DNA of 64,000 bases from contig JALHMI010000004.1 in assembly GCA_022844125.1 (NCBI GenBank), forward strand, positions 226,777 to 290,776, written 5' to 3'. This DNA comes from Pirellulales bacterium. Lineage in GTDB: Bacteria; Planctomycetota; Planctomycetia; Pirellulales; PALSA-1355. The notes beneath the pieces were generated by a model. The model did no database searches. It saw only the letters and a program-made list of their open reading frames with translations, and had not been told where the DNA came from. The translations under genes were made by a program, and so were the position numbers. Shown one piece after another: positions 695 to 16,526 of this stretch. The stretch's first letter is position 1. The number at the start of each line of letters is the position of its first letter.

Positions 695-3600
695 CTAGAC
701 AAACCACGGTGTTCGCTCCAATACCGGATGCAACTGAAACGGCTCTCGCTGCCGTAGGAACGCCGCCGTAAGGTACGCGATGTTCCTAGCGTACTTTGTC
801 GTGATCGGTTCTGCGGTGAATGAATCTGTCGAAGCCCAATTCAATTTCGTGAGATTCAGCACCTGTAAGGCTAAAGTCCGCGCTTCGCACGGCAGCGGAT
901 CAGTGGCGCCAGCCCGGTAATGGTCCGCAGATACTTCTAACGGTTGCGGCGTGCCAAGAGCTTTGCGGTAAGCGTTGTACCCGGTGGTCGACAACAACAG
1001 TCGCCGACGAGAAATTGCCACGAAGCTGCCTCGCTGAACGCTGCCATCAGTCTCGGGGCGCGAATCGAACAGTCTAAAATTGTTGTGCTCGTTGATCCAG
1101 ACGAAAAACACGGAGGCATCTGGCGCAATGCTCCGAACGCCCGACAAGATCGCCATGTAGTCATCCTTCGAGATTCGCACCGCATGATGAAACACCAGAT
1201 TCGGCGCTGCGGGCAGGGAATGGTCACGCTTCAGGCGTTCCAGGGCTGATCGTGACAGCGTCGCCAGATTCTCGCTGCGTTTCGTGAAGTCAAACGCTGT
1301 TGTGTTTCCCGCGTAGAACTCCCACTTTCCGTAGCTATTGAAGACGTTCGCAAAACCGAGGATTCGTTGCCCGTCCCTGGATTGCGTATACGACAAACCC
1401 ACAAAGAAATCGGCATCAGGGATGTTCTCAGGCAGCACCCAGGGGGTTACACCGCACTTCGCGATGATGTTAAGCGACAGGTTAAGATCCTTCCAATCTG
1501 GATTGCGGAGCGTACCAGTATCGATCATTTGGCAAGGGACTCCTGCCTCCAGAAGCCGACGTTTGACGACGAAGTAAGGGGAGGAAGCGTCGTCCATCGA
1601 GTATCCCGCCTCCGGCGTGTAAGCCAGAAACAGTCTGTTCAGTTTGTCGTTCCCGCACCATTCGGGATGCTCCGCGAGGAGCCGCTCGACCTCCCTATCG
1701 ACATGCTCGACGCCCTCCGTGGTCACGATCGTCGAGTAGATGAACCGAGTAGCGAAAGTGCGTTCGGCGCCGCGGTACTTGAACTTGCCGGCCTTGAGAC
1801 GCTCGATCAGCGATTCCATCTCCTGTCGCTGATTGCTCAGGCAGATAGGAACCAGTTCGATCCTGTGCTGGGCGCTATCGTAAGAGCCATACTTGGTGAT
1901 GCCTTCTCGCACGTCAGGCAGTTTTTGATGGTCTCGAAATTCGACAGCCGGTTCGTTGAGGTGCTCGACGTGGAAGGTTGCCTCTGACCTCGCCTCGAAT
2001 TCAGATAGCGCGACGGGGGTCTTCGTCATCGTCGCCTTGTACTCGCCGAAGATTACCGGGAAGATTGTGTCCGCCAACTCGTCGGCTGTCGTCTGGATTT
2101 TCTCCGCACGCTTTCGAGCCGCCCCGGTTTCCGAGGCGAGGCTGTGCTTCTTGATCGACCCGTGAAGGTCGAATGAGATACCTTCGGCCCGCACCACCGC
2201 TTCGATTTGACCAAGGGAGAGGTTCGGGATCACCCGATTCACCTGGATCCGCTTCTCCTCCTCATTGTCGAAGAAATGGATCGTTGCCCATTCCGAATCC
2301 GAAGCGACGATCCTGCCAGCTCGCCAAGCGTCGGCCTTGGCGACACAGCTTCGCCCCACGAACTCGTCAGACGTTAGTTGACGACAGGCTTCGTTCAACC
2401 TGAGAATGCTCAATACCTGGCAAGTGTAGTCCAGCACGACGTAGGCACGCCCGAACAACTCCTGAACCTGTATGCAGTATGCCGGGAAGAGTCGGATCAG
2501 CTTTTGTGCCGCTGTGGAGATCGGCAGATCAGCGCCCTTTCGATGAGCGATGATTCGGCTGAACGAGAATCGGTCGATGTACCAACCGTGAGCAGTGAGC
2601 GAGTCCCGAAGCGCCTTCGTCAACTCACCCAGCCGTAGGTGAACTTCGTCGCCGGTCGCCCTGCCAGACGCTTTTTGGACGGTGAGCAGGTAGGCGTTCA
2701 GAAACGCCGTCTTTGGAGCCTGGATACTGGCAAGGAATGCTGCCTTGCGCCCTTCGGCCTTACTCTCCAACTTGAGGATTGTCTCGTTATCCAGCAGCAC
2801 GACTGAGGGTGGAGGCAGCCGAAGCGCCACCATCTCTCTAGTCATCCGTTTAGTCCCCTCACTGAGCGCCTGGACGAACGCATTGCCCTCCGGGTCTCTC
2901 ATAAGCCTTAGCCACTCAAGCAGCTTGCGGTTGTGTGGCATAGAGGCCAGCGGCGTCGTGCCAAGGTCGAAGCGATTGGGCAGATCGACGTTCTGCTGCC
3001 GAATTCGCCCTGGATTCTTGACGATGAACGCGTCAGTATAGTGTTCGCAGTGGACTGGGTTCTTCGTTTGATAGTCGCGGTGAGCCACGGCGTTCACGAT
3101 GGCTTCGTCGACCGCAATGGTCGGAAGCTCGGGTTCCTCGGCAAAGCCGCCATCGGGTTTCCGGTGTTGCAGCCGCTCGAAGAACGAGGTTTCTCGGAGG
3201 AAAGTGCGAGCGGCCCGAATCTGCTTCGTCACCGGCCCCCGAAAGTCCTTGTCAAACGAGGGCGTGCCACGATTCTGGTAGTGGCTCGAAGGCACGACGA
3301 ACTTCAACAACCGCAGGTAGGCGTGGGAGAGAACGCGCTGCGGGTTGGATGCGAAGAAAAGGAGCCCCGGTAGCGTAAACCACTCCTCACCATTGTTGGT
3401 GACGACCGCACCGGCTTCTCGCAAGAGCCGCTCATCTGAGAAGTCTCCCGTGGCTTCCGGGTGAAACACACGCCTGAATTCGGTAACGACTTCGGCATCG
3501 AGTGCATCGGATGAGTACGAACACCAGGGCACACTGTCAAGGTCGATTAGCCCCTTGCGTAGCCGCACTTGCTCCCGGACTTCCTGACTCATGGGCAAGG

Positions 3601-4075
3601 ACTGATGCCCGTTGCGCACCCACGCCTTCGACGTCGCATCTGGAGTCTCGCAGATTGCGTTCGGCAAATAAGCCGAGTAGATAAGGCACAGTGTCCTGTC
3701 GGCTCCGCTGGCGTCCTGGCAGTGATGGCACTTCACCTCGGCGGCGTGCGTGCGGAGGAGCGTGTTGAGGTTGGTGAACGAGTTACGCTGCTCCTCACCG
3801 AGGTGGTCAATGCCGACCACCTCCCCCGTCGAGGAGATCCCGAGGACGAGCAATCCGCCCTCGACGTTGCTGTTGGCGAACGCCGAGACGGTCTTGATGA
3901 CCAGCTCTTTGACACCATCGAGAGCGCTTCGTGTGATGGGCCCATTACTGACCGGCCGACCTGCTTCTTTGCGGTCGAAGTGTTGTCCCTCGAACTCATC
4001 GTCATTTGGCTGAGTCAAAAAGCTCCACGCCGACGGCGGATCGTCAAACACTCGGCGTGGTGAGGGTCGTGACAT
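695..4075 (-). CDS. AlbA_2 (Schlafen-type) + HATPase_c_4-like N-terminal module fused to a PAZ-less MID-PIWI (prokaryotic Argonaute-like) module, apparently catalytically inactive
   Basis: This is an 1126-aa ORF. Residues about 25-130 (FEGQHFDRKE...AFANSNVEGGLLVLGISSTGEVVGI) carry an AlbA_2-type signature. Residues about 315-400 (VDEAIVNAVAHRDYQ...IVKNPGRI) look HATPase_c_4-like. Residues about 735-860 look like a Rossmann-type MID domain (SPYFVVK, VPCQMI, NIIAKCGVTPWVL). Residues about 860-1126 look PIWI-like (FFVGLSYT, LVFHHAVRIS, FFVWINEH, PITTKYARNIAYL). It starts 43 nt downstream of the helicase gene on the same strand. Confidence 0.75.
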   Translation of the reverse strand: MSRPSPRRVFDDPPSAWSFLTQPNDDEFEGQHFDRKEAGRPVSNGPITRSALDGVKELVIKTVSAFANSNVEGGLLVLGISSTGEVVGIDHLGEEQRNSFTNLNTLLRTHAAEVKCHHCQDASGADRTLCLIYSAYLPNAICETPDATSKAWVRNGHQSLPMSQEVREQVRLRKGLIDLDSVPWCSYSSDALDAEVVTEFRRVFHPEATGDFSDERLLREAGAVVTNNGEEWFTLPGLLFFASNPQRVLSHAYLRLLKFVVPSSHYQNRGTPSFDKDFRGPVTKQIRAARTFLRETSFFERLQHRKPDGGFAEEPELPTIAVDEAIVNAVAHRDYQTKNPVHCEHYTDAFIVKNPGRIRQQNVDLPNRFDLGTTPLASMPHNRKLLEWLRLMRDPEGNAFVQALSEGTKRMTREMVALRLPPPSVVLLDNETILKLESKAEGRKAAFLASIQAPKTAFLNAYLLTVQKASGRATGDEVHLRLGELTKALRDSLTAHGWYIDRFSFSRIIAHRKGADLPISTAAQKLIRLFPAYCIQVQELFGRAYVVLDYTCQVLSILRLNEACRQLTSDEFVGRSCVAKADAWRAGRIVASDSEWATIHFFDNEEEKRIQVNRVIPNLSLGQIEAVVRAEGISFDLHGSIKKHSLASETGAARKRAEKIQTTADELADTIFPVIFGEYKATMTKTPVALSEFEARSEATFHVEHLNEPAVEFRDHQKLPDVREGITKYGSYDSAQHRIELVPICLSNQRQEMESLIERLKAGKFKYRGAERTFATRFIYSTIVTTEGVEHVDREVERLLAEHPEWCGNDKLNRLFLAYTPEAGYSMDDASSPYFVVKRRLLEAGVPCQMIDTGTLRNPDWKDLNLSLNIIAKCGVTPWVLPENIPDADFFVGLSYTQSRDGQRILGFANVFNSYGKWEFYAGNTTAFDFTKRSENLATLSRSALERLKRDHSLPAAPNLVFHHAVRISKDDYMAILSGVRSIAPDASVFFVWINEHNNFRLFDSRPETDGSVQRGSFVAISRRRLLLSTTGYNAYRKALGTPQPLEVSADHYRAGATDPLPCEARTLALQVLNLTKLNWASTDSFTAEPITTKYARNIAYLTAAFLRQREPFQLHPVLERTPWFV

Positions 4076-4118
4076 ATCTCTGCATTAGCAGCGAACTGGC
4101 TGCGTTACTATGGCACTG

Positions 4119-6674
4119 TTAGGTCGGATTGAACGGGACCAGGTACTCGTCAGCCAATGAACTTGGAATCAACCGCGTTTTCGCGAGTTGCTTTTCGCAT
4201 CGGACAACCAATTGCGTAGCTTCGAGCTGCGATCGGCACAGCTCCTCAAGCAACGCTCTCGTGTCGGCAACAAGCCGTTTCAAATTGTCAAAGGTTAAAG
4301 CTTTTGTGTCGCTTGCCACTGTGCTCCGCGTAACCGTCGCGTTTGGATGCACAGAAACGCGCACGCATTTCAATTTAGGATACGTGCTTCTAAACCATTC
4401 GGCAGCATGTAAAAGCTGGCCGTGCTCTTCGCGCGTGAGGGCATTATCGGCCTTCTTTCTGCTCTTTGCTTCAATTACTAGCCCGTAAGCATCATTCAGC
4501 AGCCACAGCACGTCGGGCCCCTTCGGGTCCGTCTGCTCGGGACGCTCTCCAATGAATCCAAGGAATCCAGCGACATCCGCGAGTGCCTGTTCGAATTGAT
4601 TGGCAGATGCTTCTGCGACAAGATGCGACGTGATTTCGTCAAACTCAGCAAGCACGCCCCGGCGGTTCGCGAACTCACAAATCCGTTGAACAATCGCTTC
4701 CGATTGGCGGCCAGGCAAGGTCAATGGTTCGTATGGCGCAACTACCTTCGGTCGAGGCAATCCACGGTTCGCTGCAAAGGCACTCTGCTGCAGTTTTAAT
4801 GCAAGATCCGACTGACCCCAATGGTGGGCCGCCGATGCCGCCATTTGCAACAGCCAGCCCTTCGTCTTGCGGTCTAAAGCTGGGCGCTCGTCACAATAAC
4901 TCTTGAGCTTTTCGATTGCCTTCTCGAAATAACCGTCACGGAGTAGATTAAAGGCCCGTCGTTCCAATGCAGCTTGCCTCAATGTGTCGTCGTCGGTAGT
5001 CGGGCCGGCGACCGTGTCGGCGAGTGTTTCTGCGTGGAACTGAGTCCACTCTCTATCTCGATCGAGACATCGCTGCATTGTCTCGGCCAGATCTTTGCGA
5101 CTGACGACACTGCGGCTGATCTCAGCCCCCATTTCCAGTTGCGCTCGCGTGCTGTTGGTCAGGAGCTTTAGGTTGCTCGACCGACTGATCCAAGCGATGA
5201 GGTCTTTGCCTGTCATTGCAACGATGCAGTAATCATTGGAGCCGCGGGCGCCTCGTCCGATGCCTTGCTCGATCCGCTGGGCAAGTTCGCTATTGAGCGA
5301 AGTCCCGCCGAGAAAGACATTCGCACGGTACAGGTCATATTCGCTAGCTCCTCGCGGCAGTCCAGACATGATGAGCAAGCGGCAAGCGTCGCCAGGGAGG
5401 TCGATGCCGTCATAGCGGTTGGCGAAAACAAATGGTCCCAGTGACTCGCCCGACTGGAGTTTCTCGACGGCCTCTGAGACTTGCTCGGTCTTGTTTGGGA
5501 ACGTGGCGATAGCCTTCCACGCTTCGGCAGCGTGTTGTGAGGGCACCAATACGACTGCTCCCTTTTTCTTTTTCTCGACTACCCACGTTGCAAGTCTCCG
5601 AACGGTATCGTCCACATCAGCTTCCAGGGTCATCAACTCGGGCGCGAGAATCATGCGTTCACTTACGCCGGCGAGGGAAGTCGAATATATAGGCTTGGCG
5701 ATAGAGTCGGGTCGCGCGTCGAAGGTGCGGACAAGCGTACTATCATCACCAATCGTGGCTGACATGTAGATGCGCCGGGGACACTCCGCGAACGTGGGAA
5801 TCGCATCGACTAGCGGGAAGACGGGCGTAATCACGAATGCCTGCCGGCTGATGAGGCATTGGCAATAGCCCAGCGCATCACGCAGAAACATCCAGGGAAA
5901 CTTGTACTGTGTTTGGGCTCCTTTTAGGTATTCCTGTACCTGCAGGAGCCTCTGTGTCCAGGCCCAGTAGGGCACTTCTAGCACCGACCAATCGCCGCCG
6001 GTTACTACATCGTCAAAGGTTCCCAGTCGGTCGATCTCTTTAAAATCGTTCCGGAACGTGTTCGTAAGGAACGCATATCCTTCGTTGTCTTTGTCCTTCC
6101 GCACGGAAAGCGTAAACTGCTCGCGCACGATAGAGAACGACGCGTGCGCATCATCGAGAATCATCGCTGCCGCATGTACAATTTCGCGCGTCCCATCCCG
6201 CGTGCCGAAACGGCTCAGACCGTTGAACAGCGCATGATAGCTGCAAATGAGGATGCTGCGTCCAGAAAGGAACTCGTCCGGAAAATCAGCATTTGACTCG
6301 TAAGGTACGGCACGAATGCCATACTCCTGCGCCTTGGCAACGGTTTGAGCTACGAGCTGATTAGTAGGGGAAAGGTAGATGACCGGCTCGTTCTTCTCAT
6401 TCAGCGTCGACTGGCCGACCAGCAGGCCGACGAGCGTCTTTCCACCTCCAGTGTGCAGCTTTACCACAAGGTCATTTTCGTCTCGGCGGGCAAACCAGTC
6501 CGACAGCACCTGCGCCTGGCTTGTGTAAAGATCGTTGATGCCTGGAGGCTTAGGCAACCTTCGGAAGATCTCTACAGGATCAATGACGGCGCTGCCGGCT
6601 TTCCGGGCGCGCAGCTTTTTGAAATCGACCATCGGAACATCTCCGCTCAATGCCAAGCCTAACCATTTGCGCAT
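4119..6674 (-). CDS. SF2 helicase (DinG/Rad3-like) with a C-terminal PD-(D/E)xK nuclease-like domain
   Basis: This is an 851-aa ORF. It has a Walker A motif HTGGGKT (aa 75-80), a DEAH variant ILDDAH (aa 172-177) and a motif VI-like RIEQGIGRGARGSNDY. The C-terminus reads GPDVLWLLNDAYGLVIEAKSRKK, giving a D721...E735-x-K737 restriction-endonuclease-fold signature. The start could instead be the internal MVDFKK at 6632. Confidence 0.75.
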   Translation of the reverse strand: MRKWLGLALSGDVPMVDFKKLRARKAGSAVIDPVEIFRRLPKPPGINDLYTSQAQVLSDWFARRDENDLVVKLHTGGGKTLVGLLVGQSTLNEKNEPVIYLSPTNQLVAQTVAKAQEYGIRAVPYESNADFPDEFLSGRSILICSYHALFNGLSRFGTRDGTREIVHAAAMILDDAHASFSIVREQFTLSVRKDKDNEGYAFLTNTFRNDFKEIDRLGTFDDVVTGGDWSVLEVPYWAWTQRLLQVQEYLKGAQTQYKFPWMFLRDALGYCQCLISRQAFVITPVFPLVDAIPTFAECPRRIYMSATIGDDSTLVRTFDARPDSIAKPIYSTSLAGVSERMILAPELMTLEADVDDTVRRLATWVVEKKKKGAVVLVPSQHAAEAWKAIATFPNKTEQVSEAVEKLQSGESLGPFVFANRYDGIDLPGDACRLLIMSGLPRGASEYDLYRANVFLGGTSLNSELAQRIEQGIGRGARGSNDYCIVAMTGKDLIAWISRSSNLKLLTNSTRAQLEMGAEISRSVVSRKDLAETMQRCLDRDREWTQFHAETLADTVAGPTTDDDTLRQAALERRAFNLLRDGYFEKAIEKLKSYCDERPALDRKTKGWLLQMAASAAHHWGQSDLALKLQQSAFAANRGLPRPKVVAPYEPLTLPGRQSEAIVQRICEFANRRGVLAEFDEITSHLVAEASANQFEQALADVAGFLGFIGERPEQTDPKGPDVLWLLNDAYGLVIEAKSRKKADNALTREEHGQLLHAAEWFRSTYPKLKCVRVSVHPNATVTRSTVASDTKALTFDNLKRLVADTRALLEELCRSQLEATQLVVRCEKQLAKTRLIPSSLADEYLVPFNPT

Positions 6675-7057: not shown

Positions 7058-7591
7058 TCACCCCATAGCCGCTCTAATGTTGTTCAAGAGAAAGAACAGG
7101 CAACCATTCGGAAATGGACTTCGGTAACCAGCCTCGCTGTCCAGAATGAACGCCGCGATACACGTCATCTCCCAACCCGCGATCTCATCGCCTGGCCATT
7201 TTGGATTCGTCAGCGCCGCGATATCGTGCTCATTCCCGTATTCTCTTACCCGCTCGATATCGGGTGAGCAAAAGGCATCAAACTGCGGGTTCGCCCAAGA
7301 CCACAGCCAAGTCCCTGAGGCGCCAGAAACCGAACCGACGACTATGCAGTCGGCCTCGATTTTCCGAATGCCATTGTCCGACCACCAGAATCGGCTGCTC
7401 GGAATGTCGTAATCGTAGTCCTGGAACTTGTCGAGGCCGAACTGTTCGCTCGCCGTTCTATTTCGCTCCCGCAGGAATTCAGTTGCTTCTTCGGCGAGCT
7501 TTCGAAACTCGGAGCCGTTCATAGAATAGTCCCCTGTGCATTCTCCGCGTCGAGTGATCTCCGCACCGCGCTCCAGTATCCCACCGGCCAA
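7058..7591 (-). CDS. Conserved hypothetical protein (resembles the DUF6882 family from memory)
   Basis: This is a 177-aa ORF. A more likely start is MNGSEFRKLAEE at 7522. The motif GTWLWSWANP is typical of a widespread uncharacterised family. No function is inferred. Confidence 0.5.
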   Translation of the reverse strand: MAGGILERGAEITRRGECTGDYSMNGSEFRKLAEEATEFLRERNRTASEQFGLDKFQDYDYDIPSSRFWWSDNGIRKIEADCIVVGSVSGASGTWLWSWANPQFDAFCSPDIERVREYGNEHDIAALTNPKWPGDEIAGWEMTCIAAFILDSEAGYRSPFPNGCLFFLLNNIRAAMG

Positions 7592-8097
7592 TTTGATTTC
7601 TGCTGAAGCAATCTCACGAACCGAGCTCGAAACTCAACGAACCCGATTATATCTAGCGAATAAGTATAAGAGACACGACACAACTGAGAGCACACGCTCC
7701 ATGCGACGAGCTCAGCGAGTCCGGCCAAATTACGGCCTTCCTGTCTCCGACAATGTGCGGGAGACCTAACCAGCACAACTAATTGGCCACGTACGCATCG
7801 CCCAAGACAGCGCGATCTGCTTCGCCCAACAAGGCTCACCCCATGAGACGTTGGACGGCCGCCCTGCTGATGATCCGGCAAACTGGGAAGGGCATTCCGC
7901 CCAGGATAGGCGATAATTGAGCGTTGCAGGCGGTCAAGCACGGCCGACACGCCCAAAAAGCGCCGAAATGCCCTCAAAATCTGGCTCTTGTGTCCCGGAC
8001 CAGTTAGCTTGAACGGATTGCGGCGTCAGCATGTTTTGCTGGCTACTGCCGAGGGGCAGCCTGCCGGTTTCGAGTCCTCGTGCGCGTAGATTGCGCA

Positions 8098-9546
8098 ATG
8101 CACCTTGCCGAACTGCGGACATTCTTTGAAACTTCGCCGGCAGTCAGGCTGCTCCGCTCACAGAACGCGCCATTCGTCATCGACTTTTTAGAGCAGCAGT
8201 TCAAACGCGCCGGCCGTTTGTCCGTGCCGCATTCCGATTTGCACGCCTCGCTGGCCTCCTACCGCGAAGAGCTTCACAAGACCTACCCTGACGCCCTGCG
8301 GGAACGCCCCGAGGTGTACCTAGCGGCCTGGTGTGGCGCGGATACCCGGTGGCTGCACCGCTTCTTGGAAGCTGGCCGAGATGAGCCGGTTTACGAGCTG
8401 ACGCCACACTCCGAGAACGTGTTGGCCTTCCTGGATCAGGTGATCGACAACGAACTAGGCTTTGTGGGGACTGAATCACGGTTGAGGATCGTCATCGACA
8501 CGTTGGCCGATCTGGTCGTCCATGCGTTCGATGACCCCACTCGCCGGCTAGCACACCTTCGACAAGAGAAGGCCCGCATCGAGGAGGAGATCGAACGAAT
8601 CGAGAACCAAGGACAGGTCACCCGCTACCAGCCCGCCCAGATTCGCGAACGCTTCGCCACCGCGGTCACGACTCTTAAGCAACTTCAAGGGGACTTCCGG
8701 GCGGTCGAGGAGAAGTTCCGAGCCATCACGCTCCAGGTTCAGCGGCAGCAGGCAGAAGGTCTCGACACGCGCGGTGGAATCCTGGGTTTTGCCCTCGAAG
8801 CGGAGGACGTACTGAAGCGAGAAGACCAAGGAGTGAGCTTCTACGAATTCGTACGCTTCATCTTGTCCCCTGCGCAGCAGGAAAAGCTTCAGGCAATCAT
8901 CGATGAGCTTGGACGAATCGAGGAACTTCTGGAGCAGCGAGAGGGTTTTGAAACCGTGCAGCGCATGGTCCCGCTCTTACTCGAAGAGGCCGAGAAAGTC
9001 ATGCGGACCAACCAGAGGTTATCCTCGACGCTGCGCCGGCTGTTGGATCGGCGTGCCTATCAGGATCGGCAACGCGTCTCGACGCTGCTCCGCGAGATAA
9101 AGCAGGTGGCTGCGTCTCTGTGTGACGATCCGCCAACCAAAGTCGGAGCCGAGCTCGAAACGCACCTGGCCATCGCTTCGCCGCTCTCGCGCATTCTTTG
9201 GAGCGAGCCGCAGTCATTTGCTCCTCTAACGCTGGTCGAACACGTGAGCGACGAAGCTTCGCGCGTGGATGCATTCCGCAACCTGGCAACGTTCCAGCGG
9301 CTCGACTGGCGCGGCATGCGACAGCGTATCGATCGCGTTTTGATGGAGCGTGATGCGATTTCGTTGCGCGATTTCCTCACCGAACACCCGCCAAGTGGCG
9401 TCGTCGAAGTGATCGGCTATGTGCAGATCGCACGTGATGACGGTCATTTGGTCGATCCGGACGCCCCGGACCAAATCATCGTCTCTGGCGAGCATGGAAG
9501 ATGTCTCCAACTCACGGTCCCGCAAGTTCGGTTCATTGCGTCGTAA
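8098..9546 (+). CDS. jetA: Wadjet JetA (DUF3375, MksB-like kleisin component)
   Basis: The N-terminus MHLAELRTFFETSPAVRLLRSQNAPFVIDFLEQQF is typical of DUF3375. It is the first gene of a 4-gene operon with the canonical Wadjet order and sizes. I prefer the ATG at 8098 over the GTG at 8080. Confidence 0.8.
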   Translation: MHLAELRTFFETSPAVRLLRSQNAPFVIDFLEQQFKRAGRLSVPHSDLHASLASYREELHKTYPDALRERPEVYLAAWCGADTRWLHRFLEAGRDEPVYELTPHSENVLAFLDQVIDNELGFVGTESRLRIVIDTLADLVVHAFDDPTRRLAHLRQEKARIEEEIERIENQGQVTRYQPAQIRERFATAVTTLKQLQGDFRAVEEKFRAITLQVQRQQAEGLDTRGGILGFALEAEDVLKREDQGVSFYEFVRFILSPAQQEKLQAIIDELGRIEELLEQREGFETVQRMVPLLLEEAEKVMRTNQRLSSTLRRLLDRRAYQDRQRVSTLLREIKQVAASLCDDPPTKVGAELETHLAIASPLSRILWSEPQSFAPLTLVEHVSDEASRVDAFRNLATFQRLDWRGMRQRIDRVLMERDAISLRDFLTEHPPSGVVEVIGYVQIARDDGHLVDPDAPDQIIVSGEHGRCLQLTVPQVRFIAS

Positions 9547-9557
9547 AAGGAGCCTCG

Positions 9558-10181
9558 ATGTCTCACATTGCCGTCCCGGAATTTCGTGACTGGAGCATTG
9601 CGGCGGTTCGGCTTTTGCAAGGCGTCGTGTATTCCGACGACGAGAAGGCATGGAACGCAGTCTTGAGCGCTCGCTCTCAACTGGAGTCCTATGTCGCCCG
9701 ACTAGGTCTCCTCTTGGTTGTGGACGAGGCGGAGGGACTGTCCTACGTCCGACAAGCTGAACAGGACGAGCTTCCTGAGGGCTATGAGCGCTTGCCCAAG
9801 CTGTTTCACCGATCACGACTGGGCTACTGGACCACGCTGCTATGCGTCCTGCTTCGCGAGGAACTTCGCCGCTTCGAAGAAGAGGATCTGCACAACGAAC
9901 GTTGCGTGGTCGAGGTCAGCAACTTGTTCGATCAGTGGAAAGCCTTCTTCCCCACAACCTATGACGAGGTACGTCAGCGCCGCGAGCTCGATTCGGCGAT
10001 ATCGAAACTCTCCGATTTGGGCTTCGTGCGAAGATTCGGCGAGGAGCCGGAAGCGTGGGAGATTCGGCGGATCCTGAAGGCACGGCTACCGGCCAGCGAG
10101 CTAGAGAATCTGAAATCGCAGTTGCTTGCCGCCAGTGAGCGCCGAGCCACGACCGAAAAGCAGGGGGATGACTCGGCATGA
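9558..10181 (+). CDS. jetB: Wadjet JetB (DUF4194, MksE-like)
   Basis: An ATG at 9558 is preceded by aaaaggag. The sequence AAVRLLQGVVYSDDEKAWNAVL...LGLLLVVDEAEGLSYVRQ is DUF4194-like. Its stop overlaps the jetC start (ATGA at 10178-10181). Confidence 0.8.
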   Translation: MSHIAVPEFRDWSIAAVRLLQGVVYSDDEKAWNAVLSARSQLESYVARLGLLLVVDEAEGLSYVRQAEQDELPEGYERLPKLFHRSRLGYWTTLLCVLLREELRRFEEEDLHNERCVVEVSNLFDQWKAFFPTTYDEVRQRRELDSAISKLSDLGFVRRFGEEPEAWEIRRILKARLPASELENLKSQLLAASERRATTEKQGDDSA

Positions 10182-13100
10182 GCGAGCGACTGACCAACAA
10201 CGGCAAGCCATTGCCTGGCTATCGCCTAACGCGCGTGGAGCTTCTCAATTGGGGCACTTTTGACAGCACTCGTGGGCAGGTCCATGTTCTGCCGGTCCAA
10301 GGCGAGACTGCTCTCGTCATCGGCCAGAATGGCTCTGGAAAGTCCACGCTGGTCGACGCACTGTTGACGCTCCTCGTTCGTCCCGTGGTGCGAAACTACA
10401 ACGTTGCCGCTGGCGCCCACAAGCAAGAACGAGACGAGCGAAGCTACATCAAAGGTGCATTTGGTCGCTTCAGTCGAGATGAGGACAACCGGGCTGCCGT
10501 CCAGTTTCTACGCCCCCGAGCCTCCCAGCCGTCCGTGCTCCTGGCCTGTTTCTCGAACCAGCAGTCAGGCAAAACCTTCACGGTCGCGCAACTGCTCTAT
10601 CTTGACTCAGAAGGTGGCACGAAGCGGGTTTACTGCTTCGCCAGCAACGAGCGCTCCATCGCCGGGGATTTTGGCGATTTGAAAGGCGAGGAGCGAATCC
10701 GAGAACAGCTCCGACGCCGTGGGCTGCGAACGACAACAAGCTACACAGAATACCATTCGTGGTTCGCCAAGGAAACGGGTGTCCAAGCCAAAGCTATGGA
10801 CATGTTCAACCAAACCGTGGCCGTGAAAGACATCCAGAGGCTGAATGCCTTTATCCGCGACCACATGTTGGAGTCGAAGCCTTGGGGCAAGCGAGTCGAA
10901 GATCTCTTGAACCACTTCACGCAGTTGAGCGAAGCTCACAAGAGCCTCGTGGAGGCACGCAGGCAACGTGCGCTACTCGATCCGCTGGCCGAAGCAGGCG
11001 ATGCTTATCGCGAGCACGAAATGGAACTCTCGCGGCAGCAGCGGTTTCTCGACGCGACCGATTCACTCTTTCGCACTAAAACGGTTGAACTGTTCGTACC
11101 CGAGTGCCTCGAACGCCGCGCTGAACTGGATCAAGTCAAAGACCGCATTAAGCAGGCAGATCAGGATCTCGCGAAGGTCCACGAGGAGTGCCGGCGACTC
11201 AAGAATGAGATCGAACACGCCGGCGGCGAGCGACTAAAGCAGATACCGCTCCTGATCGAGAGTCACGAAGCCCAATACCTAGTGAAGCATGCTGAACGGC
11301 AGCGGTATCACGCGACGCTTCGCGATCTGGGTGTCAATGATTCGATCACCGATCAGCAGAAGCTAGATTCTGCCCGCACCAAGCTCTCGTCGCTCCTTGG
11401 AGAGTGCGATAGCCAAATCCGCGCTGCCGACGCGCGCCGCAATGACTCGGTAATCGCACGAGCCGACTCGATCGGGCGACTGACTGACGACGAACGGGAG
11501 CTTGAGGCACTATCGAAGCGGCGCGAGAACCTTCCGGAGTCGTTCGCGGAACTCAGGCGACGCATGTGTGAAGCTCTCAGGCTTCCACCGTCCGAACTTC
11601 CCTTTGCGTCGGAGCTGATTGCAGTCAGACCCGAAGAACGAACCTGGGAGTCCTCCATCGAAATGGTGTTGCATGGATTCGCTTTGAGCCTTCTGGTCCC
11701 GGAGCGGCACTATCAAGTCATCAGTCGCTACGTGGACGCCAACAAGATCACCAGCAACGGAAAGGGACAAAAGCTCGTTTATCTTCGGGTCGGTCAACGC
11801 CAGGCTCGCTCGGCTAGCAATCCGCGCCGCGACTGCTCCTTGCTGGACAAACTGACGTTTCGCGAGGGTCACGCGCTCCTGCCGTGGGTCAAAGCGGAGA
11901 TCGCGGATCGATTCGACTACCAGTGCTGTGAGACGATCGAGGAATTCCAGGCCGCGGAAGGCAGGGCACTCACCCGAGAACGGCACCTGAAGACCGGGAC
12001 TGTGCGGCACGAAAAAGATGACCGTGACCGGTCGAGCGATCCGCGGTATTTCGTGCTCGGCTGGGATAATCGCGAAAAGCGACGACTACTGGCCGAATCG
12101 GTTACACGACTTCGCAGTGAGGTGGCTGAGTTCGAGCGTGCTGTCGAGAAGCTGGACAACACACTTGCCACGCTTCGCAGTCGACAAGCCTCGGCACGCC
12201 GGGCACTGGAAATGACCGACTTCGAGTCGATCAATGCCGCGCGGCACGAGCTCGCCATCAAGGCGTTGCGAAAGGAACGCCATGCAATTGAAGAGGGAAG
12301 CGATGCCATTCGGATCCTCAATCGACGGCTAAAGGAAGAGGAATCGCGGCAATTGTCAATCACGAGGAAGCGTGACGATGCGGTCGCACGTCAACGGGAC
12401 CTTGCCAGAGACATTGAAACCGGCGAGAAAGCTGTCGCCAACGCGAAGTCCATCCTCAAATCGCGCTCTTCGCAGGGGGTGCTTGCTAAGCATAAGGAGC
12501 ACTTCTCAAGTCTAGAGGCGGAGCTTGCGCAGGAGCCCTTGACTGTCGTCAATCTGTTTGACCGCGAACGCTCTTCACTTGAAGAGCGACGTCGACTCGT
12601 CGACCGCCTCCGTGAAGAGTCCGTGCCGTTGGTCACAACGCTGCAAAAGACCATGAGCCGCTTCTTGATTGAGTTCCCGTCGGAAAAAGCCGACCTGCAA
12701 CCAGACGCTGCCTATCTGGACAGTTTCCTTGATCTCCGCGCTCATCTGGTTCGCGAGGACCTGCCGCGGCACGAGCAGCGTTTCAAGGAACGCTTGAACG
12801 AGAAGGTTACGCACGAGATCGGGCTGTTCAACGGGGCGCTCCAGACCGAGTGCGGTGAAATCAAGAAGAAGATTGAGATCCTCAATTCTTCCCTCCGTCA
12901 ACTGGAATATCGCCAGGGCACCTACATGCGGCTTGAGCCTCGGCCGGTCCATGACCGTGAAATCGACGACTTTCAGCAAGCAATGAAGGAATGTCTGGCC
13001 GGAACTTTTGAAGGCACCCTCGAAGCGGACGAGGCACGCTATCTGCGGATCGAAAAGTTGATCGTCCGGCTGCGTGAGGAACCACGGTGGAGAGACAAAG

Positions 13101-13594
13101 TCGCCGACGTGCGGCGCTGGTTTGACTTTGCCGCGCGCGAGATCGACGCCGAAAGCGGTCAGGAGCGTGCCTACTACGAAGACAGCACGGGGCAGTCGGG
13201 AGGCGAGAAGGCGAAACTGGCGTTTACGATTCTTGTCGCGGCGATCGCCTATCAGTACGACCTCGTACCCGGCCAGCCTGCCAAGGACCGGTTTCATTTC
13301 GTCGTTGTCGATGAAATGTTCTCCAAAGTCGATGACCAGTACGCCGAGTACGCGCTGGAGCTATTTCGGAAATTCGGACTGCAACTGCTGATCGTTGCTC
13401 CACTCGACGCCAAGGCACGCGTGACGGAACCTTATGTTGGTTGCTATCTCCATATCGTCAAGGACGAAAAGACGAGTCACTCCGAGATCCTCAGCATGAC
13501 GGCACACGAGTTCAAGCAGGTCGTGGAAGGGACGAACGGGCACGCCACCGCTCCATCACGAACTCGCACGGCATCGGCCGCGGCGCCGAGCTGA
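10178..13594 (+). CDS. jetC: Wadjet JetC (SMC-like ABC ATPase, MksF-like)
   Basis: This is an 1138-aa ORF. It has an N-terminal Walker A motif GQNGSGKSTLVDAL, long coiled-coil-like Glu/Arg/Leu-rich arms, a C-terminal signature QSGGEKAKLAF and a Walker B motif FVVVDEMF. Confidence 0.85.
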   Translation: MSERLTNNGKPLPGYRLTRVELLNWGTFDSTRGQVHVLPVQGETALVIGQNGSGKSTLVDALLTLLVRPVVRNYNVAAGAHKQERDERSYIKGAFGRFSRDEDNRAAVQFLRPRASQPSVLLACFSNQQSGKTFTVAQLLYLDSEGGTKRVYCFASNERSIAGDFGDLKGEERIREQLRRRGLRTTTSYTEYHSWFAKETGVQAKAMDMFNQTVAVKDIQRLNAFIRDHMLESKPWGKRVEDLLNHFTQLSEAHKSLVEARRQRALLDPLAEAGDAYREHEMELSRQQRFLDATDSLFRTKTVELFVPECLERRAELDQVKDRIKQADQDLAKVHEECRRLKNEIEHAGGERLKQIPLLIESHEAQYLVKHAERQRYHATLRDLGVNDSITDQQKLDSARTKLSSLLGECDSQIRAADARRNDSVIARADSIGRLTDDERELEALSKRRENLPESFAELRRRMCEALRLPPSELPFASELIAVRPEERTWESSIEMVLHGFALSLLVPERHYQVISRYVDANKITSNGKGQKLVYLRVGQRQARSASNPRRDCSLLDKLTFREGHALLPWVKAEIADRFDYQCCETIEEFQAAEGRALTRERHLKTGTVRHEKDDRDRSSDPRYFVLGWDNREKRRLLAESVTRLRSEVAEFERAVEKLDNTLATLRSRQASARRALEMTDFESINAARHELAIKALRKERHAIEEGSDAIRILNRRLKEEESRQLSITRKRDDAVARQRDLARDIETGEKAVANAKSILKSRSSQGVLAKHKEHFSSLEAELAQEPLTVVNLFDRERSSLEERRRLVDRLREESVPLVTTLQKTMSRFLIEFPSEKADLQPDAAYLDSFLDLRAHLVREDLPRHEQRFKERLNEKVTHEIGLFNGALQTECGEIKKKIEILNSSLRQLEYRQGTYMRLEPRPVHDREIDDFQQAMKECLAGTFEGTLEADEARYLRIEKLIVRLREEPRWRDKVADVRRWFDFAAREIDAESGQERAYYEDSTGQSGGEKAKLAFTILVAAIAYQYDLVPGQPAKDRFHFVVVDEMFSKVDDQYAEYALELFRKFGLQLLIVAPLDAKARVTEPYVGCYLHIVKDEKTSHSEILSMTAHEFKQVVEGTNGHATAPSRTRTASAAAPS

Positions 13595-13639
13595 CCGGCA
13601 AGAGACAGACTGCCAAGCATTTGCCGAAGGCCATCAGCC

Positions 13640-14833
13640 ATGATTGATCCGGTGGAGATTCGCCGCAAAGCCGAGTCCCTCTATCGCGAGTACGTGCAGG
13701 CGTGGCTTGCTGCCGAGGACGAGAGTTTTTTCCCGCGAGAAATCCGCTGTCGAAAGAAGCCGGCTTCCAACGATCTGGCTGAGGCGAGCCGCGCGGTTCG
13801 TGTGCTACGCGCCGGATCGAAAGAGTCTACGGGCTTCGGCTATTCGGTCCAGTGGCGAGAAGTCCGCAGCCGCACATTCGGCCGAAACGAGTTTCCGGAA
13901 CGTGTCTTGTTTCACACGGCAGAGGATCTTTTGCGCTTCTTGGAGCGCTGCGACGAATTTGCCACGCTTGTCGCTGCTGCCACGAAACTGCGAAGTCGCC
14001 TACCTGTTCTAGAGCAATGGTTGCGGGCCAACCCGGAAACTCTTCTCGCACTCGCACCAGATCTGGATGGTCTCTTGGAAGTCGTGTCGTGGTTCGTGCA
14101 GCACCCGCGACCGGGGATCTTCGCTCGCGAGCTACCACTCGCCGTCGACACGAAGTTCATCGAGCGCCACGAGCGAATTCTTCGCAAGTGGCTGGATATC
14201 GTGCTCCCTCCCCATACGATTCGTTCCGACGAGGAATACTTTGAACGGCGCTTCGGGCTGCGTTATGCCGAACCGCATTTGATGTTGCGGTTTCTGGATG
14301 CTGGATTACAGGCCGCCGCCGGCATTCCCTTCGATGAGCTCTCATTGCCGCTTCGAACTCTCGATCAGCTATCCTGCCCGGTAACGACGGTCTTCATCGT
14401 CGAGAATAAGGTGAATCTGCTGACACTGCCGCCTATCGAGGGGGCGATTGCCTTGGGCGGGCTCGGGAATGGAGTGTCGCTCCTCCGATATGTCGCATGG
14501 CTGCAAACTGTCCAAATCACGTATTGGGGGGACATCGACGTTGAGGGACTCGCGATTCTTTCGATGCTGCGAGCTTCGTTTCCCCACGTCCAAAGCGTCA
14601 TGATGGACCAATCCACCATCGACCGCTACGAACGGCTCCTGGTGCCTGGGACCGCGCGCATTCTGGACGTGCCACCGTATCTCAATGCGGCGGAACACGA
14701 GCTCTTCCTTGCATGCCGAAGCAGGAATATTCGCCTGGAGCAGGAGCGTATTCCGCAGGCGGATGTTGTGGCGAAATTGTCGGAAAGCGCCCGGCCCCCT
14801 TCGACTCCATCCCCCGTGCCATCAGCTTCCTAA
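13640..14833 (+). CDS. jetD: Wadjet JetD (DUF3322/DUF2220, Toprim-like nuclease subunit)
   Basis: This is a 397-aa ORF. The motifs FIVENKVNLLTLPP and YWGDIDVEGLAIL match the Toprim-like core of JetD. Confidence 0.8.
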   Translation: MIDPVEIRRKAESLYREYVQAWLAAEDESFFPREIRCRKKPASNDLAEASRAVRVLRAGSKESTGFGYSVQWREVRSRTFGRNEFPERVLFHTAEDLLRFLERCDEFATLVAAATKLRSRLPVLEQWLRANPETLLALAPDLDGLLEVVSWFVQHPRPGIFARELPLAVDTKFIERHERILRKWLDIVLPPHTIRSDEEYFERRFGLRYAEPHLMLRFLDAGLQAAAGIPFDELSLPLRTLDQLSCPVTTVFIVENKVNLLTLPPIEGAIALGGLGNGVSLLRYVAWLQTVQITYWGDIDVEGLAILSMLRASFPHVQSVMMDQSTIDRYERLLVPGTARILDVPPYLNAAEHELFLACRSRNIRLEQERIPQADVVAKLSESARPPSTPSPVPSAS

Positions 14834-15497: not shown

Positions 15498-16526
15498 GTG
15501 CAGAATCTAACGCGTGCGAGTGCGGAGCTCTTCCGCAGGACAGAAGACGAGTGTTTCGAGTCGCTCTCGGCACTCTCTGTCCATCTGCGGGCAAAAAAGG
15601 AGCGGTCCGAGGATCGTTGGCAGCCGCCAACGCAGTTGGAGGCCTCGCCGATTGACGGCGGGCTACTTCTCAACGCCGGAAGCGACGGTGCGTTCCTAAT
15701 GAACGACTGGAGCTTTGGCCAGCTATGCAAGCTGGCCGGGGTGGGGAAGGAGACCGTCAATCGACTGTCTCCCGAGACGGCATCGCAAGTCTTCGCGGAA
15801 ACGCTTCCACGCGGCCAGAAGCCGCTTCAGCTTTTTACCGAGGGAGAGGATCTACGTTCCATCCACGGGACGAGCTACACGCGGCTCTACGATGCAGATC
15901 TTGTCGCCATGCTCCAGGAGTTCGCGGTGGACTTTGAGCCGCCGCAAAAGGGCTTTAACGGAGCGACCGGGCTTTATGCGGGAGAGCAGGACTTGTTCTG
16001 CTTTCTCATCGACCCGGCCGGCTGGACCGAAATCGGCGGAGAAGCTTTCGCTCCCGGATTCTTTATCTGGAATTCGGAAGTGGGGCGCCGCTCGCTGGGC
16101 ATCCAAACATTCTGGTTTCAGGCCGTATGCCAGAACCATATTGTCTGGGATGCTGTGGATGTCTTCGAGTTCACTCGAAAACACACAGCGAATGTCCATG
16201 AGTCACTCCGCGAGATCCGCCGGATCATTGAGGCATTGGTCGCCAAACGCGACGAACGTCGAGACGGCTTTGCGAAGGTGATCCAACGGGCGATGGAAGA
16301 GAAGCTTGGCGACGACGCCGAGGAAGTGATGAAGGTTCTTCAAAAGAACGGCATCACCCGAAGCGCCGCGAAGCAAGCCTTGGAAATCGCCGCGCGGCAG
16401 GGGAGGTTCACCATCTTTACGCTGGTGGACTCCCTGACTCGCATCGCTCGCGAAACCAATAACGCGGGCGATCGCACGGATGCGGACGAGAAAGCTTCAA
16501 AGCTTCTCTCGCTCGCGGCAGCGTAG
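15498..16526 (+). CDS. DUF932-family protein (typical plasmid/ICE/phage cargo)
   Basis: This is a 342-aa ORF. The motif FIWNSEVGRRSLGIQTFWFQAVCQNHIVW matches the NS..G / VC.N core I associate with DUF932. Confidence 0.65.
   Translation: MQNLTRASAELFRRTEDECFESLSALSVHLRAKKERSEDRWQPPTQLEASPIDGGLLLNAGSDGAFLMNDWSFGQLCKLAGVGKETVNRLSPETASQVFAETLPRGQKPLQLFTEGEDLRSIHGTSYTRLYDADLVAMLQEFAVDFEPPQKGFNGATGLYAGEQDLFCFLIDPAGWTEIGGEAFAPGFFIWNSEVGRRSLGIQTFWFQAVCQNHIVWDAVDVFEFTRKHTANVHESLREIRRIIEALVAKRDERRDGFAKVIQRAMEEKLGDDAEEVMKVLQKNGITRSAAKQALEIAARQGRFTIFTLVDSLTRIARETNNAGDRTDADEKASKLLSLAAA

Follow-up and report, generated by a model that had tools for sequence, protein, structure and literature searches.

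Introduction

Within the long-B pAgos, the SLFN-pAgos make up a clade of 78 proteins with lengths of 1071-1187 aa. Their prototype is RzAgo from Runella zeae (Kuzmenko et al., bioRxiv 10.64898/2026.05.29.728809, a preprint of May 2026). RzAgo binds RNA guides with a 5'-A and, on sensing DNA, turns on the tRNase of its own Schlafen domain. According to the same preprint, the D32A mutation abolishes tRNA cleavage and D72A gives stronger phage protection, E314 and N318 serve ATP hydrolysis and Mg, and Y1086 touches the 5'-adenine. Y828 and K832 line the 5' pocket by cryo-EM, and the double mutant does not bind guides. The family has no conserved partner gene and its neighbours vary (10.64898/2026.05.29.728809).

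Fusions of AlbA_2 (PF04326) to long-B pAgos had been listed as early as 2018 (Ryazansky et al., 10.1101/366930), in a catalogue which differs from the present view in that it took the head for a DNA-binding domain and assigned it no function. A further publication (PMC10620215) describes long-B systems as conferring immunity by abortive infection through effectors. Another point of comparison is DdmDE of Vibrio cholerae (PDB 9EZY), in which a non-slicing Argonaute-like sensor adjoins a helicase-nuclease gene, an arrangement resembling that of the locus studied here.

This locus lies in a 64,000-nucleotide stretch of DNA from a Pirellulales bacterium, all of which we refer to as the window. A sequence-only reading of the window had proposed a guide-binding, non-slicing Argonaute which signals to a partner, either the neighbouring helicase-nuclease or its own Schlafen-type head.

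Results

Layout of the gene and its neighbours

The relevant features, with coordinates in the window, are as follows.

695..4075, minus strand: SLFN-pAgo gene, intact, 1126 aa (Schlafen AlbA_2, GHKL ATPase, L1/PAZ/L2, MID and inactive PIWI)
3581..4075, minus strand: Schlafen/AlbA_2 nuclease domain, predicted tRNase effector, about residues 1-165
3968..3991, minus strand: Schlafen nuclease motif E29-x4-D34-x-K36, with D34 equivalent to RzAgo D32
3872..3886, minus strand: Schlafen box SAFAN, residues 64-68
3830..3832, minus strand: S82, at the position of RzAgo D72
2741..3538, minus strand: GHKL-type ATPase region, about residues 180-445, 38% identical to RzAgo
3092-3106, minus strand: ATPase pair E324/N328 (RzAgo E314/N318), invariant in 71/71 family members
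1871..2725, minus strand: L1/PAZ/L2 region, about residues 451-735, colinear with RzAgo at 26% identity
1436..1870, minus strand: MID domain with the guide 5'-phosphate pocket, 51% identical to the RzAgo MID
1574-1576 (Y834), 1562-1564 (K838), 1529-1531 (Q849) and 1457-1459 (K873), minus strand: pocket codons
698..1435, minus strand: inactive PIWI domain
1391-1393 (S895), 1283-1285 (T931, uncertain), 1181-1183 (A965) and 785-787 (R1097), minus strand: codons at the PIWI tetrad positions
773-775, minus strand: Y1101 (RzAgo Y1086)
4119..6674, minus strand: SF2 helicase-nuclease of PADLOC candidate family PDC-S28, 851-aa ORF, E 1e-278
7058-7591, minus strand: DUF6882 gene, between the Wadjet operon and the helicase and pAgo genes

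The length of the window protein falls inside the family range, and the PADLOC 2023 pAgo model PDLC02394 covers the product of ORF 695-4075(-) from end to end (1-1121/1121, 1667 bits). The segment 698-1873, on which the earlier reading had focused, encodes residues 735-1126. Pfam detects the Schlafen AlbA_2 domain (PF04326) at residues 31-162 with E 6.6e-9, above the gathering cut-off. The ATPase region matches PF13749 (HATPase_c_4) only weakly (E 0.0086, under the gathering cut-off), and is assigned to the GHKL type, despite this weak match, by its identity to the RzAgo region and the E324/N328 pair. Pfam did not detect a Piwi domain in the protein, which we attribute to limited sensitivity since PADLOC, PDB and fold searches all find an Argonaute. 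We found no second Argonaute in the protein's own genome, and no tRNA gene within the window.

Comparison with RzAgo

We located RzAgo among genomes of its family by a residue fingerprint taken from the preprint (11/11 residues), and an exact look-up returned WP_028663822.1. The two proteins align over their full length with 433/1142 identical positions (38%) and 51 gap columns, free of large insertions; RzAgo has no N domain, and by this colinearity the window protein may lack it too. Identity amounts to 39% in the Schlafen domain, 38% in the ATPase, 26% in L1/PAZ/L2, 51% in MID and 47% in PIWI. D32, K34, E314, N318, Y828, K832, Q843, K867 and Y1086 of RzAgo are all retained, with D32 corresponding to D34, K34 to K36, E314 to E324, N318 to N328, Y828/K832 to Y834/K838 and Y1086 to Y1101. 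Residues whose mutation abolished an activity in RzAgo (D32, E314 and Y828/K832) are thus all kept. The nuclease signature of the family, E(x)4(D/E)xK, is present as E29-D34-K36 together with SAFAN at 64-68, and the PAZ/MID/PIWI core lacks the catalytic tetrad as in other SLFN-pAgos. Overall, the window protein resembles RzAgo in domain order, length range, tetrad loss, YKQK pocket, the second 5'-A tyrosine and clade, as well as in the Schlafen D-x-K and SAFAN motifs, the GHKL E/N pair and the lack of a fixed partner gene.

The differences from RzAgo are small. His27 of RzAgo corresponds to the canonical Glu29 in the window protein, Asp72 to Ser82 and the basic patch K46/K47 to K56/E57. The host also belongs to another lineage, and the gene has Wadjet and a PDC-S28 helicase as neighbours. 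The E-x4-D-x-K motif opens with Glu in 66/71 family members, unlike the His of RzAgo, and Asp occupies the RzAgo-72 position in 8/66 members checked, with Ser or Lys in most relatives. Judged by these sampled sequences, it is the window protein that is typical of the family at positions 29 and 82, and RzAgo that is the outlier. The preprint calls Asp72 of RzAgo (locus L084, 1501-4836) conserved, yet few sampled relatives have Asp there. Ser82 may make the window protein, and most of the family with it, naturally 'hyperactive'.

Classification

A FastTree phylogeny of MID-PIWI segments places the window protein and RzAgo in a clade of 36 members (support 1.0), nested inside one of 47 members (0.996), and all 12 of the 12 full-length representatives sampled from the larger clade carry Schlafen and GHKL domains. 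The root of this tree was set at two distant representatives and no long-A outgroup was included, so the long-B assignment rests on the preprint and on RsAgo and EcAgo as the best solved matches. RsAgo (long-B; PDB 6D8P) is the top Foldseek match (E 3e-32) and EcAgo, of the BPAN system, the top profile match (E 7e-27). Both share the inactive PIWI and the intact Y-K-Q-K MID pocket with the window protein. They differ from it in their length of about 730-780 aa and in lacking the fused Schlafen-ATPase; EcAgo works with a separate nuclease. The N domain is missing from RzAgo-type proteins. The core has the Argonaute fold, with Z up to 35 (35.0 for CpAgo and 31.7 for RsAgo). VIA-align put active CpAgo and a eukaryotic PIWI first, and given that the top Z scores are close and reflect fold rather than clade, we did not use this ranking for classification. 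We also considered and rejected a short pAgo (SPARTA, SPARSA or SPARDA, with MID-PIWI only and an APAZ partner): the L1/PAZ/L2 region of RzAgo is present in the window protein, whose alignment with full-length RsAgo spans 790-860 columns.

The PIWI tetrad and the MID pocket

In a phmmer search against solved structures, the PIWI/MID part aligns to Aquifex aeolicus Ago (1yvu) with E 6e-11. Counting residues along the printed alignment, D502, E541, D571 and D683 of AaAgo, its catalytic tetrad, fall on S895, T931, A965 and R1097, whereas Y439, K443, Q454 and K480, its guide 5' pocket, fall on Y834, K838, Q849 and K873. The phmmer alignment to CpAgo agrees with this register at the first and the last Asp. 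In AlphaFold2 models (pLDDT 86 at full length; pLDDT 88.7 and pTM 0.88 for the core), S895 lies in the first PIWI strand (890-898), A965 directly past the strand 959-964, while the last helix (1091-1109) contains R1097; these three residues occupy the RNase-H tetrad places in the predicted fold. R1097 is outside the X residues D, H or K accepted in the DEDX tetrad of active long-A pAgos, a tetrad that the window protein lacks. The glutamate-finger position, T931, is uncertain because the loop 927-935 is poorly anchored and contains D929 and E935; the other three positions are clearly non-catalytic.

The substitutions recur throughout the family. Across a diverse set of 71 members, one of them the window protein, 68 have Ser and 3 have Ala at position 895, position 965 is Ser in 63, Ala in 6 and Thr in 2, and position 1097 is never Asp (47 G, 9 R, 8 K, 3 S, 2 H and 2 L), while the pocket Y, K, Q and K are found in 71/71. 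In 100 close relatives the pocket residues Y834, K838, Q849 and K873 do not vary; 99 of these sequences have Ser at 895, and every one has either Ser or Ala at 965. Nearly all of 72 more distant representatives keep YKQK; two of them have Asp at one of the three anchored positions and none at two. By these alignments, tetrad loss is family-wide and not peculiar to the window copy. The assignment of Y834/K838 to the pocket follows from their alignment with RzAgo Y828/K832. The motifs quoted in the sequence-only reading are present in the ORF and its by-eye alignment was correct: the catalytic positions are substituted, with the reservation on 931, and the MID 5'-end pocket is retained as in AaAgo and RzAgo. 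This combination is the defining state of long-B pAgos and no oddity.

Genomic setting and loci of relatives

The SLFN-pAgo gene was not found in 60 kin genomes, and its GC content is 57.6% compared with 61.9% for the genome, the island being likewise lower than the genome. Absence from kin and low GC fit a mobile defence gene. A complete Wadjet type I operon, jetABCD (8080-14833, plus strand; 4/4 PADLOC models match), is divergent from the helicase and pAgo genes.

In relatives the neighbours vary. Type I RM is the commonest (14/94 loci), and Gabija-like OLD and UvrD, BREX, HNH and RT genes also occur; even relatives that are 84-89% identical adjoin Gabija-like, HNH, BREX, type I RM or reverse-transcriptase genes. 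At locus L089 (13424-17239), type I RM genes precede a close relative that is 83% identical, and a 1271-aa reverse-transcriptase protein (PF00078) follows 42 nt after it. Four loci (L004, L006, L012 and L056) have in common a DNA methylase (about 930-1100 aa) on the upstream side and a UvrD-type helicase (about 690 aa) on the downstream side, at about 3000-6000 and 9400-11500 (further downstream in L012), and this arrangement is a small conserved cassette within the family. The window ORF 15498-16526 (plus strand) has a 58%-identical homologue (L032:8014-9120) adjoining an SLFN-pAgo in another planctomycete locus; the two are probably shared mobile-element cargo.

The sister group of the SLFN-pAgos includes P0153, a protein of 1199 aa from a single contig (L109:1903-7480) that joins an ADP-ribosylglycohydrolase domain (PF03747, E 4e-41) to a long-B pAgo core. 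A DarT gene (PF14487) precedes the P0153 gene at a distance of 8 nt, and one for a 428-aa protein without PADLOC match comes after it. The pair looks like a DarT toxin with a putative antitoxin fused to Argonaute, and our literature search found no publication combining both terms.

The upstream helicase-nuclease

The helicase ORF ends 43 nt upstream of the pAgo start and both genes are co-oriented; databases call an 837-aa start for a protein that the window ORF extends to 851 aa. tblastn (E <= 1e-3) found a helicase homologue in 0/94 SLFN-pAgo loci, including the relatives at 84-89% identity; 76 of these loci have at least 2.5 kb upstream and some are near-duplicates. Conversely, profile searches found no Argonaute beside helicase homologues in 8 loci (7 proteins; three loci with 1.5-kb flanks only). 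Three genomes that carry the helicase and are 87-94% complete gave no pAgo match at any position. The homologues adjoin a transposase, a type III RM-like operon, a DUF499/DUF1156 cluster or urease genes, and one sits inside a urease operon (L108). L090, the only locus with both genes, and L091 were discarded as a second instance of the pair because they are 100% identical to the window DNA and thus not independent. DdmE matches the core with Z of 11.1 and 8.9, compared with 31.7 for RsAgo and 35.0 for CpAgo, and is absent from the profile matches of the window protein. The locus therefore has neither a conserved pairing of pAgo and helicase-nuclease nor a divergent Argonaute of the DdmE kind. 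PDC-S28 helicase-nucleases are widespread, with at least 3340 homologues, and appear to be a stand-alone candidate defence gene, of which our search of the literature returned a single mention.

Discussion

We consider it very likely that the gene encodes a single-chain SLFN-pAgo acting against phages by abortive infection, with the dead PIWI as sensor, the effector on the same chain and the helicase-nuclease as a separate gene of the defence island. What we observed here is the order of domains, the loss of the tetrad, the preservation of the MID pocket and of the Schlafen and ATPase motifs, and the grouping with RzAgo in one clade; the activity would follow from homology to RzAgo. The missing tetrad points to a sensor role, and the effector would be the protein's own head. 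On the RzAgo model, the MID pocket would bind short 5'-A RNA guides and the guide-bound protein would assemble into inactive filaments. Pairing of the guide with complementary DNA, which would stay uncut, would break the filament, and ATP-driven tetramers would then bring the Schlafen domains into a tRNA-cutting cleft; cleavage of tRNA would halt the infected cell. This sequence of events is drawn from one preprint on one protein. Filament formation in particular might not transfer to the window protein, because L1/PAZ/L2 contributes to the filament interface and shares only 26% identity with RzAgo. The altered Schlafen positions (E29 for H27, S82 for D72, and K56/E57 for K46/K47) likewise count against a full equivalence.

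These same differences could speak for a branch that shares the architecture and not the chemistry, with another type of guide or target, another RNA substrate (e.g. rRNA or mRNA) or regulation free of filaments; RzAgo itself is atypical at H27 and D72. Against this stand the identity of 51% in MID and 47% in PIWI, the conservation of both tyrosines contacting the 5'-A and of every loss-of-function site, and the use of an RNA guide and DNA target by RsAgo, the other characterised long-B pAgo among the top matches, too (PDB titles), and we regard such a departure as very unlikely. A two-gene system akin to DdmDE, in which the dead PIWI would tag target DNA for degradation by a recruited partner, the SF2 helicase-nuclease (4119-6674), could draw on the co-orientation and 43-nt spacing of the genes, on the candidate defence family of the helicase and on the four related loci with a different, UvrD-type helicase directly downstream. 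It appears very unlikely given that, in the loci compared, the pairing is confined to the window's own sequence and neither gene's relatives keep company with the other. In addition, DdmE is structurally distant, the window protein carries its own effector and the preprint found no conserved partner in the family (10.64898/2026.05.29.728809). The earlier proposal of a guide-binding, non-slicing Argonaute signalling to an effector appears right by homology, and of its two candidate effectors the own Schlafen head, demonstrated experimentally for RzAgo, is favoured over the helicase-nuclease. The latter is probably an unrelated neighbour outside the system, since it is missing from the 94 related loci and those of its own homologues that we checked have no Argonaute beside them; its closeness to the pAgo gene is best explained by clustering in a defence island, where a complete Wadjet operon stands alongside. 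That this lineage only has recently coupled its SLFN-pAgo to the PDC-S28 helicase-nuclease, one sensor with two outputs, strikes us as highly improbable; if true, the Schlafen head would cut tRNA and the recruited helicase-nuclease would degrade DNA.

The single-chain reading also has to be set against a once-active Argonaute in decay, or an active enzyme whose catalytic site is non-canonical. The acidic D929 and E935 in the glutamate-finger loop could be cited in favour, as could the frequent Asp of relatives at 1098, one residue off the X position. The ORF is intact, however, and the window protein has Asn at 1098, while the substitutions are fixed in the 100 close and 71 diverse relatives, a single Asp at one of the three anchored positions occurs in only 2/72 distant ones, and the tetrad is missing from all long-B pAgos; the chance of either scenario is close to negligible.

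The window protein adds one more, ordinary member to an anti-phage family that has recently been characterised. A dead PIWI with a live MID already defines long-B and short pAgos, and the SLFN-pAgo fusion family has already been solved structurally and functionally, so the pattern by itself carries little weight as a discovery. Given that the studied RzAgo is atypical at both Schlafen positions, the window protein, with the site commoner in the sampled family (Glu first and a residue other than Asp at the 72 position), provides a useful second test case for the family.
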